From Wickerhamiella versatilis (Eukaryota), in assembly GCA_030867685.1 (NCBI GenBank), contig JAQOWU010000008.1, forward strand, positions 2,480,001 to 2,544,000: a DNA stretch of 64,000 nt, given 5' to 3'. A program made the position numbers and the translations under genes. The notes under the pieces were generated by a model. That model was not told the DNA's origin, made no database searches, and worked only from the letters and a program-made list of their open reading frames with translations. Of the stretch, positions 21,067 through 55,330 are shown in pieces; within the stretch, counting starts at the first letter, position 1; each line of letters begins with the position of its first letter.

Positions 21067-22572
21067 ATGGCGGCAACACTTTCTGACAAGGAGCTCTTTG
21101 AGCTCAACAAGCAAGCGGTGACGCAGAATTTCAGCCTGAACCCCCATTTGACCTACAACACTGTGCAGTCTGTCAACGGGCCCCTGGTGATCTTGGATAA
21201 AGTAAAGTATCCTCGTTACGGAGAAATTGTCAGTCTTTCTCTTCCTGACGGTTCCTCTCGTCAAGGACAAGTCCTAGAAGTCAAGGGTAACCGTGCAGTC
21301 GTTCAGGTTTTCCAGGGTACCTCGGGTATCGATGTTAAGAAGACCACCATCGAGTTCACCGGTGAGAACCTTAAAATCCCAGTCTCAGATGATATGCTTG
21401 GTCGGGTGTTTAACGGAAGTGGTACACCTATAGATTCTGGTCCTCGTGTACTGGCTGAGGATTTCCTTGATATCAACGGCAGTCCTATTAATCCTTACAG
21501 TCGTACTTATCCTGAGGAGATGATCTCCACGGGTATTTCGACAATAGATTGTATGAATTCCATTGCTCGTGGCCAGAAGATTCCTATTTTCTCTGCCTCA
21601 GGTCTTCCGCACGATGAAATTGCTGCTCAGATCTGTCGCCAGGCCTCTTTGGCCAAGCCGACGAAGGATGTCCATGATGGTCATGAGGATAATTTCTCGA
21701 TTGTGTTTGCAGCAATGGGTGCGAACCGTGAGACTGCTCGTTTCTTCCAGCATGACTTCGAGCAGAACGGCTCTCTGGACCGTACAGTCCTATTTTTGAA
21801 CTTGGCTAATGATCCTACAATTGAGCGAATCATCACACCTCGTCTTGCACTTACCACAGCGGAGTACCTTGCCTACCAGACCGAACGTCATGTGCTTACA
21901 ATTATGACTGACATGAGTTCCTACGCAGACGCCCTACGTGAGGTCAGTGCAGCCCGTGAAGAGGTGCCAGGACGTCGTGGTTACCCGGGTTATATGTACA
22001 CGGATTTGTCCACTATTTACGAGCGTGCTGGTCGTGTAGAGGGCCGAAATGGTTCTATTACACAGATTCCGATTTTGTCCATGCCGAACGATGATATGAA
22101 CCACCCAATTCCCGACTTGACTGGGTATATCACGGAAGGCCAGATATTCGTGGATCGCCAGCTTCACTCGCGTGGTATATATCCCCCTATCAATGTGCTT
22201 CCGTCGCTTTCTCGTCTAATGAAGGCAGCCATTGGTGAGGGAATGACCCGAAAAGATCATGGCGATGTGTCTAATCAGCTCTATGCTAAATATGCCATCG
22301 GTCGTGATGCTGCAGCAATGAAAGCAGTTGTTGGTGAGGAAGCGCTAAGCACGGAGGATAAGCTATCACTCGAGTTCCTTGATAAATTTGAGCGTACCTT
22401 CGTGGCCCAAGGTAAATATGAAAACAGAACTGTGATAGAGTCTCTGGACCTTGCCTGGAGTCTATTGCGTATCTATCCAAAGGAATTGCTGAATCGTATC
22501 AGTCCTAAGATTCTGGATGAATTCTACGATCGTCGTCCGCGTCACCCTGAGGATGAGGACGCTGAAGAATAA
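21067..22572 (+). CDS. VMA2: V-ATPase V1 subunit B
   Basis: First ATG at 21067. [25 protein letters not shown] and [17 protein letters not shown] motifs. Confidence 0.98.
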
Positions 22573-22651
22573 ACTTTTAAGACTGAATTGAGCAAACTAT
22601 TGGAATAGTCTTAATATCAACATTTTCTAAACAAAAAAAACTGGCCTAGAT

Positions 22652-23731
22652 TTAAATATGAACGTATGCTCTCACAGCTTCGCCGAAGCTATAGAGAATC
22701 TCTTTCTGGAGAGTAATATACTGGGAGCCTCCGCCAAGTTTATCAAATGAGTTTTGGCGATGTTGGTATATGCCCGATGCCGTCCTCATTATTATAGAGG
22801 AGCTTGTACTTGCGACCTGTTCTGCCGAAGCCTGTATTTTTTGTAATGCATGGTTCATCATGCGCGCATCATAAACATTCACAGAACCTGATTGGGCTGC
22901 GACCACATCGTTTCCTGAACACGACAGTGAATGAATTGCAGAGGTTTTCATGGTCAAATTTCTATGCCGCGTCCGAAGATCATAGATGTCTAGCGAGTCT
23001 TTAGTTCCCAGCAACAAGCTATGCCCTGCCACACCAAACTCATTAGGACCATCACCTTCGCCATTAGATTTACCATATAGTGCTATAGCTTGAACACCTG
23101 GTGCAGACCATTCGTGTATAACTTGCGAACTCCCACACTCCCATAAAGCAACCGTGCTATCACTAGTACACAACGACAAGATATTCCTGCCGCGATCAAT
23201 CATCTCAACTGAATCCACCATGCCCCGTTGGTGCTGCATCGTCTGAGCCAGCCGTCCTGTACGCGCATCCCAAATCTTCATGGCAAAATCCATACCTGCA
23301 GACAAAATGACTTCAGTACTCGGAAAGAACTTTGCCACACTTGTATGTAGAATGTGGCCTTCGAAATCAATTCGAGACTGGGTATCAGGATCATATATGG
23401 CCAAAGAACCTTTGCTGTCTCCTGCCAGCACGCGGTTTGTTACTGGGTCGACATCTCCACAAGATTGTGGCATAAAAGGCGCCTCTAGGTATTTTCCCAG
23501 GATAAATCGAAATTTTCTATCAAACGATAATATGGAATTGTCATAGCACACTTCTAGACCTGGGCAGTCTAAACTTAGCCCTTTATTTGAACTCTTCGCA
23601 GTGACGGCATAATGAGACCCATTAAGTTCGACCCAAAATCTCTCTTCTCCCACCTTTCCCCTCACCACATCATCCAATACCTCGCCAACTGTCTCTTGGA
23701 TGTGGATATCTGGGAGGTCGCCTAGTGTCAT
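22652..23731 (-). CDS. RPN14: Proteasome base assembly chaperone Rpn14/PAAF1 (WD40)
   Basis: N-terminal LPDIHIQ...E.FWV, GHILHTSVAKFFPSTEVILSAGMDFAMKIW, IDRGRNILS and LWECGS. Confidence 0.85.
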   Translation of the reverse strand: MTLGDLPDIHIQETVGEVLDDVVRGKVGEERFWVELNGSHYAVTAKSSNKGLSLDCPGLEVCYDNSILSFDRKFRFILGKYLEAPFMPQSCGDVDPVTNRVLAGDSKGSLAIYDPDTQSRIDFEGHILHTSVAKFFPSTEVILSAGMDFAMKIWDARTGRLAQTMQHQRGMVDSVEMIDRGRNILSLCTSDSTVALWECGSSQVIHEWSAPGVQAIALYGKSNGEGDGPNEFGVAGHSLLLGTKDSLDIYDLRTRHRNLTMKTSAIHSLSCSGNDVVAAQSGSVNVYDARMMNHALQKIQASAEQVASTSSSIIMRTASGIYQHRQNSFDKLGGGSQYITLQKEILYSFGEAVRAYVHI

Positions 23732-24300
23732 GTAGGATTAAAAGCCTTACGATCTCGCTCCCATAAGTCGTAGTAGTGGCAAAACCAGTCAGGCCACCAG
23801 CACCTCTGTGGCAGTATGCAGGTATTTTCAGAAGCATTATCAATTGCATCCTCTGCTGTTAAAACTGGAGTCTCCACTAGCTCTATAAAAACTTCAGCAT
23901 TATAGCTTCCGCGTGGCCCAGCATAGGCAATGTATTCGCCGAGTATTGCCGAGAATGCCCAATGCTGTATTTTTCTTAGCAACCCAATAAATATGGTGGC
24001 ATCTAACACAAGCATGGGGTAGTTCCGGCGATCAAAAACATGGTGCATGGCCTCACCAACAAGCGTGCGGGACAAAACACGCCAGTCTGCAACTGATTGC
24101 CAAGGTTCTAAAGCAATGTGTATGAGTTTAATCATATTCTCCTCCGCAAATTGACGTAAAACTGGAAACGGCTCGCCTGGTGTAAAAACCATGATAGTTT
24201 GAAGCTGAAGATGTTGAAGGAACTCGAAATCTTCACTGCTTAATGACATCGCACGGTATATTCCAGGCTCGACGCTGCCGAAACTCTCAGGAGCCTGCAT
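23728..24300 (-). CDS. OCA4: Oca4-like Siw14/PFA-DSP family pseudophosphatase
   Basis: First ATG at 24300. PESFGSVEPGIYR and YPMLVLDATIFIGLLRKIQHW...EY...YNAEVFIELV. Lacks the HCxxGxxR catalytic loop, as Oca4 does. Confidence 0.78.
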   Translation of the reverse strand: MQAPESFGSVEPGIYRAMSLSSEDFEFLQHLQLQTIMVFTPGEPFPVLRQFAEENMIKLIHIALEPWQSVADWRVLSRTLVGEAMHHVFDRRNYPMLVLDATIFIGLLRKIQHWAFSAILGEYIAYAGPRGSYNAEVFIELVETPVLTAEDAIDNASENTCILPQRCWWPDWFCHYYDLWERDRKAFNPT

Positions 24301-25020
24301 TTTCCATAGCTTCACAGCGTGTGAAAATACTAGCCCTTACCCTGAAGAGGAAGACACCTACTAGATAGGTGGTGATCGAAAACACAGGACAAAAGTTGTC
24401 AAATTTTTGTATTCTAAGGATCAGTCGATTTAAATTGGGGCTATATCAACCCAATTATGTGCTTGTGACTTGCTAGGCGTGATGCCTCTGCCAGAGATAT
24501 ATACAAGGATGAGCCCAAAGAAAGGACCCCTACTAGACAAAACACCTATAAAGCATAAAGTCTAGGAATAAAGGAAACGAGCTGTTTACATAGTGACTCA
24601 TGACAAGCTCGAAATTTTGCTACTTTTTACGAACTACGGAATGGAAAGCAATAGCAAGAAAGAAAAAGGAACTTCGCGCCAATGGTATTTATGCGTATTC
24701 CTAAAATTACTCTGCTCTAATAGAATGCTTTCTAATATCAAGAAAATATATCACATGCCAATTCGAGGTTTAGGTAGATGCCGCGTTGCATCTTGAGACG
24801 TGTTTGTACTAATAATCCACACTTAGGAGAGGTGGATCGACGGATCAAAACCCTTGCCCATACCAGTCTAGGTGGCCTTGGGAAGTCTGCAAGAACCATA
24901 GAATGTTAAAAAAAGAATTATTTAATACTTACGACTAAAATTAGAGCGAATTTTTCAATATTACTGAATTTTTAAGTCCCAAAGAGTTGCCCGTGCAATA
25001 GCACCGATAAGGGAATGGCA

Positions 25021-25047
25021 CACGTCGCACGTGTCTGTAGCACGTGG
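25021..25047. promoter_or_regulatory. Cluster of E-boxes (candidate Pho4-type sites) upstream of BTA1
   Basis: CACGTC at 25021, CACGTG at 25028-25033 and CACGTG(G) at 25041-25046, 80-100 nt before the ATG. Confidence 0.65.
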
Positions 25048-25125
25048 TCGAGGGATACTCCACAAGCCACATATAGTGCTTTAAAGTGATTATAAACGAC
25101 AGCTCTGATTTCCTCAGAAGCATAG

Positions 25126-29684: not shown

Positions 29685-30234
29685 TTCTTACGTGTCAAAT
29701 GACTATGGGCTCACCTACTGTTTTATATGCATCATGCTTGTATGACGTAATAATAGCCCACTTCCCGACCCCAAGGGTTGCTACTACCCTTAACGACAGG
29801 AAGATGCAGTGTGCTCGAGACGTTAATCAGGTCCTTAAATCTCGCGAATGTTTTACAAGTAGATCTTAAATGTTCTTTTCTGGTGATCTACCCCATTTTG
29901 CACAGAATTAAAAGTAAACATCATAAGTAATAACGTCACATGCAATCGAATGTTCTAAATTATAAACACTGGAATGATTTCTGGGTAGTTGGGTGGCAAA
30001 TGGCAAATAACAGATAACATAATATTCCGATCGAGTTTCCTTATTCTTACAGGAAATCAATTTGTGTAGAACAGTTTTTTTTTGAACTGCTTCCACATGG
30101 ATTAGACGAACATGGAGAGTAATAATTAAATTTATGTGATGGGTATAGGAAAGATCTACACTATTCTTCGGATCCATTAGCCAAGATTATCCGGGCGTGC
30201 CTATTATGCCCTGACATAGTTAGTCATCGAAGAA

Positions 30235-30975
30235 ATGGAGAAGCTGTTGAGATGGTCTATGGATGCTGCCCACTCGGGTAATGCGGGAGATCCGGATCCC
30301 AAGCTATTGGCTCAATTATTCGGTGCTCCTGGTGAACCAGATCAAATGAAGGAAGATCTGCGCTTTGTTGTGGAGAATACCGACGATTTGGGTAAAAGGG
30401 TTGAGTGCCTGGAAAATTTTGAAGAGTTGGTAGAGAGCATTGATAATGCAAATGAAATTGGGCTACTGTGGGAGCCTTTGCTGTATCTTGTCAATGACAA
30501 AGAGCCTCAAATTCGTACCCTGGCACTATCAGCAGTAGGTTCTGCGGTTCAGAACAACTCAAAAGCACAAGGTGATCTGGTGGCCACTAAGACTGGTGTA
30601 AATACTATTATGGAACATGTGTGTGAAAAAGATGGTGCCGTCGCAAATAAGGCAATATATGCCCTTGCTTCAGCTCTTGGTCACTGTCCAGCTGCATATG
30701 CACAATTTCGTGAAGCAAAGGGTTGGGAGCTGTTGCAGTATCTTTTCGATTCCCATTTCGATGCTCCTTATGGAGTTACAAAGCTACGTGGACGCGTACT
30801 AAGTGTATTGTATGCAGTGCTTCTCGCTGATCCCACCGACTCTATAAAGGAGTTGAATGCCACCAGCATCTGGTCCAAAATTAAAAAAGTAGAACCCGAG
30901 CTTGATGAGTCTCTTAAGGAGAGGATCACTCACATTCGCGAACTGCTGAACGATAAGGGATATAATAATGCCTAA
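30235..30975 (+). CDS. FES1: Hsp70 nucleotide exchange factor
   Basis: MEKLLRWS...PDPKLLAQLFG, LENFEELVESIDNAN and GSAVQNN armadillo-type motifs. Confidence 0.92.
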   Translation: MEKLLRWSMDAAHSGNAGDPDPKLLAQLFGAPGEPDQMKEDLRFVVENTDDLGKRVECLENFEELVESIDNANEIGLLWEPLLYLVNDKEPQIRTLALSAVGSAVQNNSKAQGDLVATKTGVNTIMEHVCEKDGAVANKAIYALASALGHCPAAYAQFREAKGWELLQYLFDSHFDAPYGVTKLRGRVLSVLYAVLLADPTDSIKELNATSIWSKIKKVEPELDESLKERITHIRELLNDKGYNNA

Positions 30976-31001
30976 ATACGCTTATATAATTTTCTCTCGC
31001 T

Positions 31002-31937
31002 ATGTCTGATCACGATCAAGCAGAAACTCGTCAAATAGTGGCAGCACTCAGTTCGGGACAGAGTACCCAAGACAGTATTCAAAGTGCGCAAGCAGAAATA
31101 GATCCACTCCTGCTTGAACAATTATCTGCTGCCGTGGGAAATTCTGAATCGTCTGCTCCGCCACCACCCCCTTCCGCTCAAGACCAGCAGACAGATGCTA
31201 ACGATTCTTATCATGGCGTCGATCTTGGAGTGGACGACCAGCTTCTGGTCGATTCTCTGAGATCAATCATAAGTGGTGAGCCTCAGAGTCAGTCTCAACT
31301 TGAACAGTCCAATACCGATAGAGACACTGTGCAGGCACTCCAGGCAGCCCTTCTCAATGCGGATACGACAGGCCGCACAAGCGAGGAAGGGCGTGATCGT
31401 ATGCGTGCTGATGCAAGGGAACGCAAGAGACGCTGGAGAGATTCTAACGTGGAGCGGAATAGGATGAACGACTTGCGTGCGCGGATCCATCGAAAGGCAG
31501 GTGAATTATTTGGCGAGGGCGATTCGCCCCAAAAAACGCATTGGATAAATCAAGAATTTATGAGACGTCGGGATCGGAGGGATAACTCGCCAAATCTTTA
31601 TGGCACGCCGCCTCTTGTTGATCGAAGGTCACTAACCAGACAACAGTTAGAAGTGGCGCAGGAAGAGATTAGCAGGCTCTTTCGCGAATCAAATGCAGCA
31701 CTTGAGCCGCGATTAAATGGGCTAAGAAGGGAAAACCCTGACACAATGCCTTATTTGCCGGAGTTGTTAACACGTACCCCAAACCGACCCAAGTTTACTA
31801 TCAACTATTCAGCACGGACACCTAAGAGCAAGATCAAGGTCTATTCTAATTCAATTGGCGTGTCGGGCGTTCCACCAAGGCTTCCAGAAATTATTGCTGA
31901 GCAGAAATCGCCTGTCTCTTCGCCTCAAGCAGAGTAA
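31002..31937 (+). CDS. DUF3020-domain fungal protein (basic, probably nuclear)
   Basis: RERKRRWRDSNVERNRMNDLRARIHRKAGELFG...WINQEFMRRR matches the fungal DUF3020 pattern. Confidence 0.8.
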   Translation: MSDHDQAETRQIVAALSSGQSTQDSIQSAQAEIDPLLLEQLSAAVGNSESSAPPPPPSAQDQQTDANDSYHGVDLGVDDQLLVDSLRSIISGEPQSQSQLEQSNTDRDTVQALQAALLNADTTGRTSEEGRDRMRADARERKRRWRDSNVERNRMNDLRARIHRKAGELFGEGDSPQKTHWINQEFMRRRDRRDNSPNLYGTPPLVDRRSLTRQQLEVAQEEISRLFRESNAALEPRLNGLRRENPDTMPYLPELLTRTPNRPKFTINYSARTPKSKIKVYSNSIGVSGVPPRLPEIIAEQKSPVSSPQAE

Positions 31938-32391
31938 TTTATAAAGTGAGCGACTCTAAAAGAGGGCTATCTCCAGTTGCATTCAATATTCGTTGCATCT
32001 TCTTCTGTTATACTTAGATACATTGCATTATTTATCATCATACAAATTTAGTATTAGTTCCGTGTTACAACTAGCAAAAACTTAAGACCCTAAATTTATC
32101 AAACTCTAACTGCAATATCATCTTGCGCATGCCCCAGTTTCTCATGTGCTGCTCTGAAATAGATTAGCTAGTATCAATTGAGCCGCAAGCCATTTTCTTT
32201 TTTTTTCTTGAAGCCTCTCTTCCGGCATTTTACTATTGCAGCTTCCCCCTTGCAGAAATGTAAATAGAGCACAAGGCCAAAAAAAGTCCCAGGCATAGGG
32301 TTACCGCACAAAGCATAATCAACGGAGCTGTTTACATATCCACTATAAAGTGCTTAGGGTGTAAGAGAAAAAGAAATAGTTTTTATTTTTC

Positions 32392-32661
32392 ATGTCTCGT
32401 CTTCTGCGTTTGTTAAGAGAGCCCAGCCCATCACCTGGATCTCGCGGCAATCGCAAGTCATGGGAGTCGCACCGTAGATCCTTGTCGGATTCTGGTAGTG
32501 CATTGTCGCAACTGTGCTTGCCCGACAAGGATCCCCCCTCATACGAGGAAGCGGCTGATGAGCCATTGCGTTATCAGAAACAACAGAAGAGACAACGTAG
32601 TTCGAAAATTATTTCGACAGAAGACGGCTTCTTAGGTAGCAAAATCTATCTATGTGACTAG
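32392..32661 (+). CDS. Small hypothetical protein with a PPxY (PY) motif
   Basis: 89-aa ATG ORF with more GC-rich coding-like composition in an otherwise empty 1.2-kb gap. Contains DPPSYEEA and RRSLS. Confidence 0.55.
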   Translation: MSRLLRLLREPSPSPGSRGNRKSWESHRRSLSDSGSALSQLCLPDKDPPSYEEAADEPLRYQKQQKRQRSSKIISTEDGFLGSKIYLCD

Positions 32662-33190
32662 GGAGTCTACAGGGGTTGGCTTGAGATCCCATCAGTGAAG
32701 ACGTTGAAACTATCTATGACAGGAAGTGGGGTAAGTGTAAGCGTTGGATCACTCCTCTCCCCCTCACCACAGTCGTCTAATATAACTCTGAAGCCACATG
32801 CTGGTACTTTAATGATGGCAGGCATACATTCATTCTACTAGAATGCCATTATTACGCGAAATGCATTTTCTGCTATCCCAATTTTTTATACAACCTCTCA
32901 GCCCGTGATTCGGTTTTCATCGGACATAACCGGAAAAAACCGGGTAGAATCGAGACATGGCAAGGGCCAGTCGTAATGTCCAGATTATAATTATAGAAAA
33001 TTAAACATGATGTTCTTCTATTTGCGGACAATCTGCAATTCTGTTTAACATGACCTAAAGATTACAGGCGTGACTATCTATGAAGATAGACGCGAATCGT
33101 ATTGTACGTGCGAACACGGAGTGGTTAGGGCTGAAGAAATTGTCCAAGGATTTAATTACAAGCGTTGTTTTCTGAAACAATCTTGCAAAA

Positions 33191-34339: not shown

Positions 34340-35353
34340 ATGTCCGATGCTGACTGTTCAATGACAGGTGAGAAGCCAGAGAAGTCCGCGGTCAAGGGCG
34401 ACACGCAGATTGTTGCCCCTGATAAGACGGATTATGTCGAATCTGACAGCAAACTCCTCGATGAGTATCCCCGTGATAGTGAAGAAATAGATGTCACCCA
34501 CATGAAGGTATCATCCGTGCGGGCCCTGGGTCTGAAGAGATTCCCCAATGTGAAATTTGTATGTTTTCGACAGAATTTAATATCCAGTCTGAAGGGTATT
34601 GAAGAATTGCCGGAAGATTTGGAGAGTCTGGACTTTTATGATAATCGTATAGGACATATGGATCATCGCCTCGAACATTTTGGCCCCCCCTTGACAAATC
34701 TCGATCTTAGCTTTAACAATATTCGTCACGTTCGGCACTTAGAGGGACTGGTGGGGTTGCGGGATTTATATCTCTGCCAGAATGACATTGGGCGGATACA
34801 AGGACTCGATACTCTTGTCAACTTGCGAAACCTGGAACTGGGTGCAAATTCAATTCGTGAAATCAAGGGTCTGGATAAGCTTGTGAATTTGGAGGAACTG
34901 TGGCTCGCACGCAATAAAATAACCAAGATTGAAGGTCTTGAGAAGTTAAAAAAATTGCGATTGCTCAGCATTCAAAGCAACCGAATATCAAAGATTGAAG
35001 GCCTTGAGGAGCTGGAAAACTTGGAGGAATTGTATATCAGTTACAATGATCTTGAACGTATTGAAGGTTTGGATAAGAATACCCATTTGCATACCCTGGA
35101 CATTTCTCACAACCGAATAGAGGAGTTGTCAGGTCTCGGGCATCTTGATAAGCTTGAAGAATTATGGTGCTCCTCAAATCGGTTGGCCGGCTTTACAAGT
35201 ATCGAGCGCGAACTTAAGCACCTGCCTGAATTTAATACAATCTATCTCGAGCACAATCCTTTGCAAAAGGCATCAGGACCCATGTATCGGAAAAAGGTAA
35301 TGCTTTCATTGGGTAAATCACTTAAACAAATTGACGCCACGCCTATAGTATAA
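34340..35353 (+). CDS. SDS22: PP1 regulatory subunit Sds22 (LRR)
   Basis: Tandem SDS22-type LRRs (LDFYDNRI, LDLSFNNI, LELGANSI, LSIQSNRI) and the LRR cap YLEHNP...YRKKV...QIDAT. Confidence 0.95.
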   Translation: MSDADCSMTGEKPEKSAVKGDTQIVAPDKTDYVESDSKLLDEYPRDSEEIDVTHMKVSSVRALGLKRFPNVKFVCFRQNLISSLKGIEELPEDLESLDFYDNRIGHMDHRLEHFGPPLTNLDLSFNNIRHVRHLEGLVGLRDLYLCQNDIGRIQGLDTLVNLRNLELGANSIREIKGLDKLVNLEELWLARNKITKIEGLEKLKKLRLLSIQSNRISKIEGLEELENLEELYISYNDLERIEGLDKNTHLHTLDISHNRIEELSGLGHLDKLEELWCSSNRLAGFTSIERELKHLPEFNTIYLEHNPLQKASGPMYRKKVMLSLGKSLKQIDATPIV

Positions 35354-35374
35354 ACCAATTAATTCAATAAAATT

Positions 35375-37060
35375 TCAGACCTCTGAAGCGGGGTCCACTA
35401 AAGTCTCTTCAACTAAATCCTCAATATATTCCTCGCGGGCAGAATCACGCTCCAGGCGATGCTCATCTTGGAAAGTTGATGCCACTATACATGCTATTGC
35501 CATTGTACTAACGAAAGCGAAAACTGCAATTTCAACCGTACGATAGCTAGCTGTGATAGCAGAAAGATATTTCTTAGGAACATCTTTAATGGCTTCAACG
35601 GACTTCATCAAATCATGTATAATACTTTCTGTTTCACCGTTATGAGGTAAGTTCTTCCTCAAAGCGGACGCAAGTACATTCTGAAGGATTGCTGCTGAGG
35701 CAGATATCCCGATTGACGACCCTGCCCCTCTAAAAGTGTACTGGGCAGCTGTGGTGGTTGCCTGAAGTTCGGGGGAAACAGCCGCTATCAGTGCTATAAG
35801 GGTTATTGTGAGCATCGATGCATATCCTACACCCTGTAGGAGAAACGCCAACCACTGGTACCATGTTTTTGTGGTAAGTGGAAACCATAGGGCGGTTCCC
35901 ACACTAAACATAGAGCTCGAACAAAGCATAGCAAATGAGGCCAAGATACCTGCTTTCCAGTACCTGCCCGTATGACGCATGTACAGGCCCGAACCTAGCG
36001 ATCCGGACGCCACGCCCACGAAGTTTATTAGGATGCAATGTGACACATTGGTATAATCGTAGCCATAAACGGCCTGCAGAAAGAGCGGTCCATAATAGAG
36101 AAAAGAATATGCCAGGGCAGACCCAAAGAAATTGGCGAGGCAGGCGCTCATCACGGTACGATGGCATATGACCTCAAGTGGCATTACAGGTTCAATTGCC
36201 TTACACAGTTCCCAATAGTAAAAGACGTATAACATACCGCCCGAGAGGATAAAAAATGACGCTATAGGGAGGCTGAACCACGCAAACTGGTTACCCCCTG
36301 TGGTAGTCCCTAGCATAAAGAAAAGTAACGCTGAAACAAGCGCGAAGGAGCCAACAATGTCAATTCTCTCGAGACTGTTACGCTTCACAGGGTGATCGAC
36401 ATGACTATCGCCTGTGACAATCTCTGAATCGCCTGCTTTTTTCTCGATCACCGCCAGCCATACAGCAATGGCACAGATTAATGCTAAGGGTACCTGCGCC
36501 TTAAAGGCCATACGCCATCCGCTAATCGAGGTAACCCATCCACCAAAGATACCACCTAAAGCTGCACCCGAGCCAAAACAAACATTCCCAATCCCTTGAA
36601 AGATCCCACGTTTGCGCAATGGGATATAGTCTGATACTGTAACGGTGGACATGGAAAGCATGCCACCGGCACCCACACCAGACACAAACCTTCCCGCAAT
36701 TAATGCAGGAAGTCCAGCCGCAACTCCGCACATAAGACAGCCAATACCAAACATTATAGTGCAAAAAACGCTAACATGCTTTCGGCCAAAAATATCAGAA
36801 AACTTGCCATAGAGGGGTTGAAAAGCCGAATATGCAACAGTGTATCCTGTTGCAATCCATGAAATGTTATCAAGCTGTCTAAGTTCGCTTGCAATGTGTC
36901 CCATCAATGTTGTAACAATCGTGGTATCCATTGCCGCTAGAACTACACCAGAATATAATGCAGAAAGAAGAATTACTAGCCTCCACGTCGATATCTCACT
37001 AGAACCATTAGCAGCACCAATTAGCGGTGTTTGTTCCGAGGTTACACCTCGATCCGACAT
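35375..37060 (-). CDS. 14-TM MFS transporter (DHA2 / Vba vacuolar basic amino-acid transporter-like)
   Basis: First ATG at 37060. N-terminal EQTPLI dileucine-like sorting motif, LAAMDTTIV, QPLYGKFSDIFGRK and SDYIPLRKRG. Confidence 0.9.
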   Translation of the reverse strand: MSDRGVTSEQTPLIGAANGSSEISTWRLVILLSALYSGVVLAAMDTTIVTTLMGHIASELRQLDNISWIATGYTVAYSAFQPLYGKFSDIFGRKHVSVFCTIMFGIGCLMCGVAAGLPALIAGRFVSGVGAGGMLSMSTVTVSDYIPLRKRGIFQGIGNVCFGSGAALGGIFGGWVTSISGWRMAFKAQVPLALICAIAVWLAVIEKKAGDSEIVTGDSHVDHPVKRNSLERIDIVGSFALVSALLFFMLGTTTGGNQFAWFSLPIASFFILSGGMLYVFYYWELCKAIEPVMPLEVICHRTVMSACLANFFGSALAYSFLYYGPLFLQAVYGYDYTNVSHCILINFVGVASGSLGSGLYMRHTGRYWKAGILASFAMLCSSSMFSVGTALWFPLTTKTWYQWLAFLLQGVGYASMLTITLIALIAAVSPELQATTTAAQYTFRGAGSSIGISASAAILQNVLASALRKNLPHNGETESIIHDLMKSVEAIKDVPKKYLSAITASYRTVEIAVFAFVSTMAIACIVASTFQDEHRLERDSAREEYIEDLVEETLVDPASEV

Positions 37061-37438
37061 CAGCAAATTGGATACTTAAGATAACCGCGTTGAGCTCACT
37101 AAGCAAGGCTCTGACCTGAAAGCCAGCTGCACGCTTCTCTGAGGGAGGTGGAGCTATGAGTCTATTTGAAAAAATCACAAATAGCAAGATTTGTTTACTT
37201 GAGAAATTTTTTTTTACTAGGAAGGGATACTTTAGTAGATTAGTGCTTTCATTCCACCCCATATTCACAATGCGCACCAACCCAATACATATACAGGCCC
37301 CAGATATATCATCACCCTGATATGCTTAAACCACGATAGTTTAGTTTGTACAGGCCGCAGACCTCCGAAATGAAATGCCACTCGTTACATACACCAATAA
37401 AACACGGTATTACTAATTAAGTCGTCCAATCACAAATA

Positions 37439-37684
37439 ATGGTTAACGGCACCTACCGATTCGCAGCGAAGTACAAGGAGCCTGTTGTCATCGGCCGTCA
37501 CCTTTCTCTGCCTGCTGCTGCGAGATGGGCGCCAACTTTGGCGTTGTGGGGCGGTGGAGCCCTCACCGCGGTCCTATTTATGGCGGATTCGATCCCTCTT
37601 TACCGCCAGAATATTCTCAGCAAGCTGCCGGTTGTTGGATCCTACTACGACGATTCTATAGACCCTGAGGACTCTCCCTTTTAA
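37439..37684 (+). CDS. QCR10: Cytochrome bc1 complex subunit 10
   Basis: 81 aa. WAPTLALWGG...F.DSIP.YRQNILSKLPVVG...IDPEDSPF. Confidence 0.88.
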   Translation: MVNGTYRFAAKYKEPVVIGRHLSLPAAARWAPTLALWGGGALTAVLFMADSIPLYRQNILSKLPVVGSYYDDSIDPEDSPF

Positions 37685-39310
37685 ATGGCATGTAAGTGTA
37701 TGTAGCTATCTTCCTTTTCCTGGTGGTTTTTCAAGCTGCAGCGGAACCCCGTTAATCTCAGTCTATGTGTGGCTAGCGTAGTTCTCCTGGGCTTCTGTCT
37801 ATATTGTAGCCAAGCAGAAATCCACTAGATTCGATCGCACTATAGTTTGTCTTAGCTCTGTCGAGTGTTCACAGAAAAAAGCAGCCCCGAGCCAGAAGGG
37901 CCTTATCTTAGACCAGTATCTTTTTCATAGGGTCCGGATCATATCACTAGGAGTAAATGCGTACAACAATATCACGGGAAGCATGTTACTGCGTCTATGC
38001 ACAAGTGCGATGCGCTGTTACTTGTGCCAAGCAGCAGCGAGTACTCTCTGATCGTTCCACTGCACGATAGTATACTGTCACATTTTGGGAAATAAGCAAC
38101 TATATTACAGAAATTTTATTTCATCAGTTTTTTCATCCTGGACTGAGAGGACGATTACGATTACCTGCTTACAATCTGCGATGACGTGAAGTGAACAAAA
38201 AAAGAGGTCTTATTTTCAACTTTTAGTAGGTTTTTTTTGTCCTCCTGTTAAACTAGAATGGCCCTCCATTATAATTTGGCATCGTTGAACCTTGGTAAGT
38301 ACACCTTTGTCGTCAAATGATAGTCCTTCACATATCTATATTAAGGTCGCATATATGTCTATCAACACGACAAAATACATATAGCTAGAAAGCATAATTA
38401 CCCTGCAAGTTATACCTCAAATTGCCACTATTTGAGCATAATCAACACTGCTCATGGGCAGCGGATACCCAAAAAAAAATTCTACAGTGTTCGATGCCAA
38501 TTGTTCAGGGAATTTTTGTCACCAGTCTGCATCCTGTACGCTGATGTCATCAGGACTACTTCTAAGCGAATGCTCAGAAAATCTAAAAGATTCGTTGGAT
38601 TACAAATGAAGCGAGAAGTACTTGGTGCCTCTCGTGTTAGTGGATATGCATGCGCTTAGGCCATGAGCAGCCTTTGTTAAGGTTTGGTTGCTTTAGGGGC
38701 ATTTATTATGGCCACAGCAGTGCTATTTCCTAGCCAGAGAACCATTATCAGGATTTTTTTCAGTAAGTTAGCAGTGATTCAAATACTTTCTCATGCACCA
38801 CGCAGATCTATCAATGATGAGAAAGAAAACCTTCAGTCTTCAACATGAGCTTTCTAACTAAGATATACATGTCAAAAAACTGACCACGTGGCAGTTCGGG
38901 TCGAGCGGGGTCCTCTTATAGTTGCTACGGGAATTTGCCGCTCAACCCGGTACATATTTAGTTGTAATTAAGTGTTCCTAGAGGTAATAACCAGATTTAA
39001 ACAAAGCATAAAATGAATTCCAACGAGTTCAACGCGGCTCCAGCAACTCGCCGCTTGGATCTGGTTCTGATTGTCTCATCAGGTTAAGGGTTCGCAATAA
39101 GCGAATTGCTCGGTTTGAGGGTAACCGTCGCATGAGCCGAAAAAAATCAGAAAGTTGAAGTAGCGCATGTTTGTAGTGGATTATAGAGTAGTAACGTACT
39201 CCGTATACTATTACTATCAATATTATTTTTTTTCACTTATTCCAGTCCGCTAATAGCCTCTTATGAGGCAAACTTTACTCTCCTCTCGTACTAAGAGTAG
39301 TTAGGTTTAG

Positions 39311-40399
<1,089 letters not shown>

Positions 40400-40594
40400 G
40401 CTATTGTTATTTAGTAGTTTTCATAGTGATCTATTTCTAAAACAAAATTCATGTTCATTTAAAATACTTTGTTAATATGTGCTTTGCATTGTTGTACATT
40501 GGCTTGTCTTTGGAAGTTCTTTGTATCAGAGGTGTAAGCCCGACAATAAACATTGGAATAAGAGTTCCTGACTAATAAGGGGCTTCAAATCTTG

Positions 40595-41198
40595 ATGGGT
40601 AGGTGTTACTTGCCACGCTGGGGGCACACGATATTGGCAGAACTAACTATAAGGTAACGTTTTTAGTAGCCTATTTTCCAGGCTATGGAATTCAAAAAAG
40701 GAGCATCGGGTGTTGATACTCGGGCTGGACGGTGCGGGTAAGACCACGATTCTCTATAGAATGCATCTTGGGGAAGTGGTGTGCACCGTACCAACAATAG
40801 GTTTCAACGTGGAAACAATGGTTTACAAAAATCTGCAGTTCAACGTCTGGGATCTCGGTGGTCAGACAACTATTCGGCCGTATTGGCGCTGCTATTACAC
40901 GGGAACCGATGCTGTTATTTTTGTTGTTGATTCCCTGGATAAAGACCGCCTCGAAATATGCTCGTCAGAACTTCACCAGATGCTTAAAGAGGACGAGCTG
41001 TCCGAGTCAGCCCTCTTGGTTTTTGCAAACAAACAAGATCAGCCGGGTGCGCTGAAGTCTGAGGAAATCACAAAGGCTCTCAAATTACCGTCGCTGCGGG
41101 ATCGTTCGTGGACTATTGTGCCGTGCTCTGCCATCCGCGGAGATGGTCTGAGCGAGGGCCTGGACTGGTTAGTAGATGTTATAACTAACCAAGAGTGA
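40595..41198 (+). CDS. ARL1: ARF-like GTPase Arl1 (exons 40595-40598 and 40654-41198)
   Basis: Splicing restores [33 protein letters not shown] (myristoylated Gly2). [16 protein letters not shown] and NKQD motifs. 182 aa. Confidence 0.93.
40599..40653 (+). other. Spliceosomal intron, 55 nt
   Basis: 5' GTAGGT, branch AACTAAC (40641-40647), 3' AAG. Removal joins ATG-G to GT-AAC in frame with the GTPase ORF. Confidence 0.88.
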
Positions 41199-41569
41199 CC
41201 TTTGGGTGTAGGGAGATCATTTATTTATTCCACGCCATGTTGTTATGAATACAGAAATGGTAGGGTAGTTTTATTAGAATCCCTATTTGAATATAATTGC
41301 AAACATATAGCAAAGCGATATATCTCATGCGCCAACCGCTATATGAGCGATAGTTAGTTTTTGTACTTTATAGCGCACCTCTCAACTTAGCTAGCGGTTC
41401 TCTGGCATTCTGCTTAAAACCGGCATTCATCTGGTCAATCCTAATTCTATTTTCGTGCCACCACATCTCAGGAATGCAAGTGTTATCTATGTCATTCGTG
41501 ACAATACCTGAAGCAAGATACGTTATTCTGAATACCTGCTATGGGCTCAACATATAGTTTGCCACGCCT

Positions 41570-41599
41570 CTTATCCCTGATAAACTTATCCCTGATAAA
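41570..41599. repeat. Perfect 15-bp tandem duplication CTTATCCCTGATAAA x2 (inverted GATA pairs) in the catalase promoter
   Basis: Units read at 41570-41584 and 41585-41599. Confidence 0.9.
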
Positions 41600-41751
41600 A
41601 TCATTGATAATATTGGATGTTAGTTTATTAGCCAATAGTCTTTAGGTTAATATTGATCACGCTGCAAGTTTGCGTCTCTGACAAATCTCCTCCTTACCCC
41701 ATTAAGCATTATCTTTGCTGGCCTTTTGACTGTCAAGAAATTTCATAACTA

Positions 41752-52999: not shown

Positions 53000-53506
<507 letters not shown>

Positions 53507-53557
53507 TTAGCGACTAAGACCTGCTGTCAGGATGATCCTAATTAACTAAGCATGCTT

Positions 53558-55330
53558 CTAACGTTTGTTGGATGATGTGACGACAATTCCCTCCACATCC
53601 TTTTCTGAATATCTTACTCGTTTTGCAGGGATCCAGTGAACACAGCTTGTTGGCTTTGTGTTTGAAATTATTGTGTGTGTATCACCAGTCCACACAGGGG
53701 GTCCAGCAATCACTGAGAGAGTTTGAAACCCTATGTTAAAATTATAGCCTGAAAAAGAATTTGAATCAATTGCTGGATGGCTTTCATATATTTCGTCCAA
53801 ATTATCATCTTCTAAGGGACGGTGATTCTCGAAGTATTTCAGGTCAGCGGCCTCAAAGGACCATTCAATTGCCGCATTTCGCGGAAGTCTGCTCACTTCT
53901 GCTACTATTAGGGGAATTGAGGGCTCAATGCAGTTCCATATCTCCTCTGCCAAATAAGTAGCTTCTACAGAAGTGGTGTAGGCTATAGCTACCCTGAATA
54001 CCCAATTCTGACCATGCATTGTATTTAGCAGTCTTTGTGCATTTTGTAGTGCCAAAACAGCCTGCTTGACAACGTTATTTTCGAGTTCTAATGTATGAGG
54101 AATGAGCCCTATTTGGCCCGCGACATAACTGATGCCCTGGACCATACGTATTTGGGAGTAAGGACCAATGTTAGCAGGCGCCCAAAAGCTTCTTCCTTGT
54201 ACATGCAAACCCTTGGCCTCATTATCTGGTTCGATTTCTCCACAGACTGTGAGCTCCACTTCCCAAGGTAGAGGTGCTTCTATGCAAGCTCGAGATGGTG
54301 GGTTAAGTAACGAGGCAAGGTGCAAGTTATACATTTGATTAAATGCCACAAAGCTATCCATATTATGCAGTATAACAGCGACATAATAGATACTGTCATT
54401 CTTTTGAAGGTGATGGAACACTTCCTCGCAGGTCCCTCGTATGGTCTGATACCATTTTCCACCTGCGGTGTACTCACCTTTCTCGAATGAAGCTTCCGCA
54501 ACATCGAATTTTACATCCGGAATTTTAGAAGTAGTATCGACAGACTTTAGCTCCAGTTTAGCGGCCAGATCCTCAAAAAAAGGTTCTAGAAGTGGAGGCT
54601 GACGAACTAATCTACGGTCACTAGCCAATTCGTTTTTCTCCGAGTGGCATTTGAAACTGAGATAATAAACATCGTCACTGGAATGCTTCACAACTTCAGG
54701 TTCATCCATTACCATCTTACGCAGAAAAAAAGGTGCATTAAAGACCATGGTTTCATATTCACCACCTTCACCACAAGGGTGGGAGCCGTAGAGTGAGTGG
54801 AGCCTAAGTAAATCTTGGCGGGCATCCCCTAATGTGAGTCCAAGGTGCTTTTGGTCCAACCCATAGCCAGCAACTTTAACAATTCGTGCATCAAGTCCGC
54901 TCTCCACCAGTTCGTCAAGAAGCTCACACTGGTCTCTCTGCCACAAAAAACAAAGCGGTACCAGACCACCAACTGAATTACACGCACTGTCGACACGTAA
55001 CTGCTGGTATGTCGACGCAATAGCGCCTACAGAAACACCTTCGAAATCCAGATCTTTCCTTATGTCCTTCAGTAGGTGTGAGAGGTCATCTACAACAGCA
55101 TTCTCGGAATCGCTGATTTCTCGGCGATACAGTGGAACCCCCATGCATTCAGATAGATATTCCACTGCTCGATAACCAACGGTCTGAAACATGTAACTGT
55201 CGATCTCCTCGCCTAGCCCTGCACGAGGGAACAAGTTTGCAAGGGCGACAAGTTCATGTCCTTGGTCCAGACATTGAGCTATGTTGTAAACTGAGTCTTT
55301 GCCGCCGCTTACAAGAGCGACAAATTTCAT
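53558..55330 (-). CDS. DPH6: Diphthine-ammonia ligase (ATP-binding domain plus RidA/YjgF-like domains)
   Basis: VALVSGGKDS, DSYMFQTVG, CGEGGEYET and LHVQGRSFWAPANIGPYSQ. Confidence 0.95.
   Translation of the reverse strand: MKFVALVSGGKDSVYNIAQCLDQGHELVALANLFPRAGLGEEIDSYMFQTVGYRAVEYLSECMGVPLYRREISDSENAVVDDLSHLLKDIRKDLDFEGVSVGAIASTYQQLRVDSACNSVGGLVPLCFLWQRDQCELLDELVESGLDARIVKVAGYGLDQKHLGLTLGDARQDLLRLHSLYGSHPCGEGGEYETMVFNAPFFLRKMVMDEPEVVKHSSDDVYYLSFKCHSEKNELASDRRLVRQPPLLEPFFEDLAAKLELKSVDTTSKIPDVKFDVAEASFEKGEYTAGGKWYQTIRGTCEEVFHHLQKNDSIYYVAVILHNMDSFVAFNQMYNLHLASLLNPPSRACIEAPLPWEVELTVCGEIEPDNEAKGLHVQGRSFWAPANIGPYSQIRMVQGISYVAGQIGLIPHTLELENNVVKQAVLALQNAQRLLNTMHGQNWVFRVAIAYTTSVEATYLAEEIWNCIEPSIPLIVAEVSRLPRNAAIEWSFEAADLKYFENHRPLEDDNLDEIYESHPAIDSNSFSGYNFNIGFQTLSVIAGPPVWTGDTHTIISNTKPTSCVHWIPAKRVRYSEKDVEGIVVTSSNKR

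Follow-up and report, generated by a model that had tools for sequence, protein, structure and literature searches.

In the food yeast Wickerhamiella versatilis, two adjacent genes on the minus strand, one encoding an OCA4-like protein and the other a protein of the RPN14/PAAF1 type, share four nucleotides (nt): the stop codon of the first and the start codon of the second overlap as ATGA. The pair lies within a window of 64,000 nt (GenBank assembly GCA_030867685.1, contig JAQOWU010000008.1, positions 2,480,001 to 2,544,000), and all coordinates given here are positions in that window. The arrangement is conserved in related lineages, both genes are expressed, RNA reads cross the junction unspliced, and RNA depth steps up from OCA4 to RPN14 close to the junction. 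Probably, these are overlapping transcription units whose spacer has been lost, with the RPN14 promoter embedded in OCA4 codons, and the ATGA is not a coupling device.

On this explanation, two unrelated native genes of a yeast of the Wickerhamiella/Starmerella clade would have lost the spacer between them so that their transcription units overlap. OCA4 would be transcribed from a sharp start at about 24305, and RPN14 mainly from its own monocistronic mRNA, with starts scattered within the final ~100 nt that code for OCA4; the core promoter and leader of RPN14 would be written in OCA4 codons. OCA4 transcripts would pass their own stop codon into RPN14, and probably through it, and would serve as OCA4 mRNA rather than as a template for Rpn14. 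The ATGA would be the end point of compaction, kept in place thereafter because selection acts on the start codon of RPN14 and the stop codon of OCA4. The locus is an extreme case of an already known kind, the overlapping transcription units of a compact eukaryotic genome. If this ordinary explanation holds, a eukaryotic promoter and leader are written entirely in the codons of another conserved gene, and the last ~30-60 codons of OCA4 are under a double load. The locus shows the reach of spacer loss in a free-living budding yeast, and it carries a warning for annotation, in that gene finders tuned to the spacers of Saccharomyces cerevisiae may mis-call such pairs.

Two conserved genes sharing a stop and a start codon

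The OCA4-like open reading frame (ORF; 24300-23728, minus strand, 190 amino acids [aa]) ends with the codons AAT CCT ACA TGA, the TGA occupying 23730-23728. The RPN14/PAAF1-type ORF (23731-22652, minus strand, 359 aa) begins ATG ACA CTA, the ATG occupying 23731-23729, and the shared ATGA thus spans 23728-23731 on the minus strand, which reads GCTTTTAATCCTACATGACACTAGGC from 23745 to 23720. The four-base overlap itself needs no statistical test, and it appears to be more than accident, given that the ORF lengths of 190 and 359 aa are held in diverged lineages. Two TAA stop codons in the RPN14 frame, 6 and 3 codons upstream of the ATG (23749-23747 and 23740-23738), make an earlier RPN14 start impossible. 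Direct reading of the 9-nt interval from the nearer TAA to the OCA4 TGA finds no slippery heptamer of the form X XXY YYZ; together with the upstream TAA codons that close the RPN14 frame, this rules out an OCA4-RPN14 frameshift fusion. The original prediction, a reading of the DNA letters and their ORFs, had described the stop/start overlap at 23731-23728, the TAA three codons upstream and the lack of room for a fusion, all of which are borne out, with the second TAA as an addition. It had also called the overlap prokaryote-style, a term that is true of the geometry and of the geometry only. Just upstream, and in the RPN14 frame, lies a five-codon mini-ORF (MGARS, then a stop; 23747-23764, minus strand) that contains TGGGA at 23763-23759; it would be an upstream ORF if the RPN14 transcript begins upstream of 23764.

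Rpn14 is a chaperone of the proteasome base that binds the C-domain of Rpt6 and helps base assembly. The 359-aa ORF consists of an N-terminal region of ~98 aa followed by a WD40 propeller, to which WD40-type families are matched, and its identity as RPN14 is supported by similarity to the S. cerevisiae protein: the single long collinear match in the PDB aligns residues 99-274 with residues 107-298 of S. cerevisiae Rpn14 (3acp, 3vl1; E ~8e-19). Feature matches in the Atlas, scoring 0.97 and taken as a lead only, are annotated 'Proteasomal ATPase-associated factor 1' and 'Similar to S. cerevisiae YGL004C RPN14'. Taken by themselves, the first 100 aa match no PDB sequence significantly (best E 0.69), and the AlphaFold2 model of the N-terminus, built on an alignment of three sequences, is poor (mean predicted local distance difference test score 44.1). 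The N-terminal region may be homologous to that of Rpn14, its length being compatible (98 versus 106 aa). Across the three aligned lineages the N-terminus is conserved from residue 1, residues 5-19 being identical in all. The next in-frame methionine is codon 87 (23473-23471), as the original prediction had placed it (about 85 codons downstream), and it is not kept in relatives: in the alignment of three sequences it is V in P0001 and S in P0002, and the strain used for RNA sequencing (RNA-seq) reads GTA at this codon (23473 T>C, 23471 C>T). The next methionine present in all three sequences is M147.

The 190-aa OCA4-like protein is a member of PF03162 (Y_phosphatase2; E 6.3e-26, a score of 91.4 bits where the cut-off is 27, the match covering positions 4-159 of a 165-position profile). 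Aligned with AtPFA-DSP1 and Siw14, it has a 6-residue gap at the HCX5R P-loop and has no Cys or Arg there, and the gap region is shortened also in the 10 closest relatives aligned to it. By its sequence, the protein appears to be a pseudophosphatase from which the catalytic HCX5R loop has been deleted. Among the S. cerevisiae Oca proteins, Oca4 is described as lacking the entire HCX5R motif, whereas Oca1, Oca2 and Oca6 are only substituted there (PMC13216928). The label 'OCA4' (S. cerevisiae YCR095C type) is plausible on grounds of fold and motif loss, as the protein belongs to PF03162 and lacks the whole loop, which is the distinguishing trait of Oca4 in that account. The relatives that carry names are a 'hypothetical protein' of Wickerhamiella sorbophila (213 aa) and a 'protein-tyrosine phosphatase' of Nadsonia. 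Of the two gene names in the original prediction, RPN14 is therefore supported, by PDB and Atlas matches, and OCA4 is plausible only.

An exhaustive HMMER search finds 819 relatives of the OCA4-like protein at E <=1e-3, of which 7 reach E <=1e-30. In a family alignment of 12 sequences (the query, the sister-species protein P0005 and 10 of the closest relatives), the C-terminal motif LP..PDWF is kept in 12/12, with P170 and W172 unchanged throughout and L163 conserved in at least 90%. The tail after PDWF is 17 aa long here and in the sister species, and 13 to ~31 aa long in the 10 more distant relatives. OCA4 thus ends where its family ends, with no extension into RPN14; the family-like residues near its end had been noted in the original prediction. 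A normal OCA4 C-terminus and an RPN14 N-terminus conserved from residue 1 point to an overlap that arose by loss of the spacer and not to a mis-called end.

The junction is not peculiar to one assembly. At least half of the sampled words of the locus are present in 20 of the 24 listed sequencing runs, from 11 studies, and all of them in 9 runs, from 5 studies. An X13 contig is identical to the window over 22300-24649; an X20 contig has 34 differences, and its sole gap, at 22633, falls outside the two ORFs. The pair is spanned by one X20 contig, although a contig by itself is no proof that the two form one transcript. In the RNA reads of X23 and X24 there is neither indel nor joint over 22652-24300, and the junction is without intron or edit. 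The assembly error that the original prediction had listed among its refutations is not found.

The pair also occurs together elsewhere. A variant lineage has the OCA4-like protein P0006 (190 aa) and the RPN14 protein P0001 (359 aa, 95% identity) on one contig of 26,743 nt, and a further RPN14 variant, P0008, likewise has 359 aa. Differences at 23664, 23473 and 23471, which reproduce V23E and M87V, place the RNA-seq strain in the P0001 lineage. In a sister species, one contig of 103,780 nt carries OCA4 (P0005, 190 aa, 80% identity), RPN14 (P0002, 359 aa, 65%) and VMA2 (P0010, 96%). The sister OCA4 ends ...NLS before its stop and the sister RPN14 begins MTPT..., termini that are compatible with TCATGAC. 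Protein lengths, a shared contig, and terminal Ser and Met-Thr residues, all read from proteins, point to an ATGA in the sister species as well. Conservation in relatives holds for the ORF lengths, and probably for the ATGA of the sister species. DNA of the sister species was sought by pattern scans: in metagenome contigs the OCA4 alignment pattern gave 429 matches and no relative, and the RPN14 pattern 175 matches, among them one unrelated WD40 protein (L001, 24% identity); in genome contigs, 367 matches included no relative.

RNA across the junction and the probable place of the RPN14 promoter

RNA-seq reads from one sample (runs X23 and X24, about a quarter of each) were placed on 22300-25000, 1641 and 1688 reads respectively, and depth was taken in 91-nt bins; the library is unstranded, first mates being equal on both strands. 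Summed depth in the six OCA4 bins is 68.5 ± 7.7 (X23) and 62.8 ± 9.1 (X24), and in the nine RPN14 bins 121.0 ± 9.6 and 129.9 ± 17.1, giving RPN14/OCA4 ratios of 1.77 and 2.07. Depth is flat on either side, and the step falls within ~150 nt of the junction: bin 23756-23846 has a depth of 60.7 (X23) and 63.1 (X24), the junction bin 23665-23755 is intermediate (80.4 and 84.2), and bin 23574-23664 reaches 121.0 and 107.4. A profile that is flat, steps and is flat again indicates two transcript populations, as a single 3'-biased transcript would give a gradient, and a step of this size means that about half or more of the RPN14 RNA is without the 5' part of OCA4. The 91-nt bins suggest that the extra RPN14 transcripts start near the junction, inside the end of OCA4, the zone of rising depth being 23665-23846 on the minus strand, in the last ~40 OCA4 codons.

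The main 5' end of the OCA4 transcript is at 24304-24305 on the minus strand, ~4-5 nt upstream of the OCA4 ATG. Molecule ends at 24304/24305 number 14 in X23 (depth beside them 22) and 7 and 5 in X24 (depth beside them 15 and 14), and upstream of the OCA4 start depth goes from ~55 down to 5-11. This 5' end cuts through, and so excludes, an out-of-frame ATG at 24307-24305. An RNA beginning at 24305 contains 13 ATGs, the OCA4 start included, before the RPN14 ATG, which rules out leaky scanning from the OCA4 cap to RPN14. With a leader of only ~4-5 nt, leaky scanning to the in-frame ATG at OCA4 codon 18 (24249) would be expected. The X20 contig reaches 24338, and the OCA4 transcript start may vary between strains.

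Continuous coverage, and no fall in depth past the OCA4 stop, make read-through RNA likely. OCA4-RPN14 read-through RNA probably exists, and OCA4 RNA may span all of RPN14. Three points are inferred: the site at which RPN14 transcription begins, the site at which OCA4 RNA terminates, and the RNA that serves for translation. Translation of read-through RNA by reinitiation is hypothetical. S. cerevisiae 'cannot normally translate polycistronic transcripts' (PMC11952965), and in yeast bicistronic transcripts the second gene is reported to have a lower translation efficiency (PMC8573964).

Sequence words within OCA4 offer candidate promoter elements. TATA-like words lie in the OCA4 coding sequence at 23885-23908 on the minus strand (TATAA at 23904, TTTATA at 23889), 158-173 nt upstream of the RPN14 ATG, and are candidate core-promoter elements. 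The nonamer GGTGGCAAA, the proteasome-associated control element (PACE) bound by Rpn4, was considered as a sign of an embedded promoter and rejected, as GGTGGCAAA with at most one mismatch has 16 matches against 15.2 expected, a chance frequency. The word GGTGGC (23798-23793) was likewise set aside, being forced by Trp-Trp-Pro codons. The sole exact PACE match in the window is at 29992-30000 on the plus strand, 235 nt upstream of a Fes1-type gene, and may reflect Rpn4 control or chance.

Several observations weigh against an embedded promoter with monocistronic RPN14 mRNA. No sharp pile-up of 5' ends is reported near the junction in X23 or X24, whereas the OCA4 start gave one, and with an unstranded library, 91-nt bins and one sample the RPN14 start is inferred and not mapped. 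Depth is flat across RPN14, with no fall of ~65 that would mark an OCA4 poly(A) site, and about half of the RPN14 coverage could be RNA of bicistronic format. The consensus TATAWAWR is not found in OCA4. The sole PACE-like nonamer near the junction (23775-23783), 44-52 nt upstream of the RPN14 ATG, occurs at chance frequency, and it overlaps OCA4 codon 175, which is variable (H, N or S). No A/T-rich terminator-like stretch is found near the junction, nor any before 22660; the only poly(A) or terminator words there are AATAAA at 23587 and an A/T-rich patch at 23540-23500, and depth does not fall at either. Downstream of the OCA4 start on the minus strand, the A/T profile has a single strongly A/T-rich stretch (70-80%), at 22600-22660, which is likely to be a 3'-end zone shared by RPN14 and the convergent VMA2.

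Other explanations and known systems

The geometry invites an account in which a substantial part of Rpn14 comes from a bicistronic mRNA, and ribosomes finishing at the UGA reinitiate at the overlapping AUG. Besides the ATGA itself, the 190- and 359-aa lengths kept in diverged lineages fit this account, as do RNA that is continuous across the junction, the lack of a fall within RPN14 and the lack of an A/T-rich terminator-like stretch before 22660. In termination upstream ribosome-binding sites (TURBS) of viral RNAs, the word UGGGA, motif 1, precedes the restart site by a few tens of nt, together with a flanking stem. A UGGGA is present at 23763-23759, 28-32 nt upstream of the RPN14 AUG. This word is dictated by the codons for Trp-Glu in the family motif LWxE, a given 5-mer is expected by arithmetic in ~8% of 80-nt stretches, and the sister species has Trp-Gly, not Trp-Glu, at the site. 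Eukaryotic ribosomes normally do not reinitiate after long ORFs. Yeast can be induced to reinitiate on bicistrons without cis-elements, by 80S reinitiation (PMC11952965), and the same clade has overlapping, potentially bicistronic transcripts of acquired bacterial operon genes (10.1101/399394). Against the account stands the depth step of 1.8- to 2.1-fold, by which at least about half of the RPN14 RNA is without the OCA4 5' part; there is also no known functional link between the OCA4 and RPN14 proteins, and a literature search found no paper naming both. Such coupling is very unlikely. It is just as improbable that the native pair is in part a true bicistronic mRNA from which Rpn14 is made by termination-reinitiation at AUGA, a case in which the pairs separated by 26 and 60 nt, described below, could be similar. 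Were coupling true, AUGA reinitiation would have its first native cellular use in a yeast, eukaryotic cells would be using operon-style coupling for chromosomal genes of their own, and a food-grade clade would provide a compact way of expressing two genes. The original prediction had left the choice between reinitiation and a promoter lying inside OCA4; the depth step favours the embedded promoter, with reinitiation a remote possibility.

Read-through could instead be regulatory, the OCA4-RPN14 transcript being no template for Rpn14 but controlling RPN14, either by interference, with transcription passing over the embedded promoter, or as a poorly translated isoform, so that OCA4 expression tunes RPN14. 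Read-through is likely here, with flat depth and no terminator-like stretch, and highly expressed bicistrons with short spacers have been proposed to modulate monocistronic translation in S. cerevisiae (Wu and Cox, PMC8573964). In the single condition seen, however, both genes are expressed, RPN14 the higher of the two, with no sign of repression, as read from one sample and an unstranded library; this account is unlikely. Mechanical ORF calls alone cannot exclude an artefact or wrong gene models, whether an assembly error, a hidden intron, a gene split by a frameshift or a downstream RPN14 start. That the same sequence is found in runs from 11 studies and in the identical X13 contig, and that RNA reads over the pair are free of joints and indels, speaks against such readings. 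The two ORFs come from different families, each of full length when set beside its relatives; Met87 is absent in two of three lineages, the RNA-seq strain reading GTA there, and the RPN14 N-terminus is conserved from residue 1. An origin in artefact is scarcely credible.

Overlapping transcription units after spacer loss, the preferred explanation, have their nearest counterparts in the compact genomes of microsporidia and nucleomorphs, for which 'A high frequency of overlapping gene expression in compacted eukaryotic genomes' has reportedly been described. As there, spacers have been lost between unrelated genes, transcripts probably start inside or run into a neighbour, there is no trans-splicing, and the geometry would be a side effect of compaction. 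In the window, very short or negative spacing of unrelated genes forms a trend, 6 of 16 same-strand spacers being <=130 nt. Unlike those genomes, W. versatilis is a free-living budding yeast with a genome of ~10 Mb, as estimated from run sizes, and its other spacers are ordinary, divergent ones being at least 353 nt; the overlap is a local extreme, not a genome-wide state.

The bicistrons described in S. cerevisiae (PMC8573964) resemble the pair, on the preferred explanation, in that they involve same-strand neighbours with short spacers and read-through forms beside monocistronic ones, the long form being a poor template for the second gene. They differ in keeping their spacers, the word 'overlap' being absent from the main text of that paper; OCA4 and RPN14 have a spacer of -4 nt, are both old, conserved genes and keep their arrangement from species to species. 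Coupled genes of bacteria and archaea that overlap as ATGA or TGATG (PMC6728339, PMC10666635) have the identical 4-nt same-strand stop/start geometry; in prokaryotes, such pairs share one mRNA, have no internal promoter and often encode subunits of one complex. For OCA4-RPN14, an extra RPN14 transcript population is indicated and the proteins are functionally unrelated; the depth step (1.77 and 2.07, from 91-nt bins) indicates that transcripts of the downstream gene also start separately.

Calicivirus VP2 and influenza B BM2, which are made by termination-reinitiation (PMC2793014, PMC3035654), share with the pair a stop/start overlap and an upstream UGGGA, which in the yeast lies 28-32 nt before the AUG. 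Unlike the viral TURBS, with which it was compared by the UGGGA word only, the yeast site is explained by conserved codons, belongs to a cellular pair and probably has a promoter of its own. Closest in phylogeny is the horizontally acquired siderophore operon of the Wickerhamiella/Starmerella clade (Kominek et al., 10.1101/399394), which likewise has short spacers and overlapping, potentially bicistronic transcripts. Its genes are bacterial in origin, functionally linked and spaced (mean 158 nt in C. versatilis), whereas OCA4 and RPN14 are native, functionally unlinked and overlapping. Among the papers listed by a literature search (12 of 24), no title or abstract describes an ATGA overlap between native budding-yeast genes.

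Gene spacing in the window

Spacers were counted among 36 ORFs, which remain of the 38 mechanical ORFs of at least 150 aa once two antisense ORFs contained in longer ones are set aside. On the same strand there are 16 spacers, the smallest being -4, 26, 60, 98, 124, 130 and 193 nt; of the 10 divergent spacers none is below 353 nt, and the 9 convergent spacers have a minimum of 21 nt. The -4 overlap is the end of a spacer continuum. Genome-wide, mean intergenic lengths of 370-549 bp are given for three Wickerhamiella/Starmerella species (bioRxiv 10.1101/399394). The neighbouring VMA2, whose best named match is in Wickerhamiella sorbophila (88%), places the yeast in this clade.

The next tightest same-strand pairs are also made up of unrelated genes. 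At 30235-31937 on the plus strand, a Fes1-domain gene (30235-30975) is followed after 26 nt by a DUF3020/SPP41-type gene (31002-31937), and a spacer of this length has no room for a promoter or a 3' untranslated region. At 53000-55330 on the minus strand, 60 nt separate a gene of the diphthamide-synthase type (55330-53558) from the lumazine synthase gene (RIB4-type; 53497-53000) that comes after it. A Pfam family was found for 9 of the 10 ORFs checked. Given that the 26-nt and 60-nt pairs are real and unrelated genes, promoters inside upstream genes must be common here.

The divergent spacer upstream of OCA4 (24302-25125, 825 nt) is far longer than the same-strand spacers, and RNA depth within it is ~1-11 as far as ~24850. 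Downstream, VMA2 (plus strand) and RPN14 (minus strand) converge across a spacer of 79 nt (22572-22660). Molecule ends accumulate there at 22646, 6 nt past the RPN14 stop, and may mark a genuine 3' end or just the edge of an alignment. Strains differ in the length of the T-run at 22633-22640: AA is inserted in 6 of 26 reads of X23 and 22 of 49 reads of X24, and X20 has one base fewer. At 34340-37060, genes for an LRR protein (plus strand) and an MFS transporter (minus strand) converge with 21 nt between their stop codons, and their 3' ends must overlap. The window is otherwise dense, apart from three stretches of 1.25-2.3 kb that hold no ORF of at least 150 aa (37061-39382, 31938-33190 and 40400-41751).

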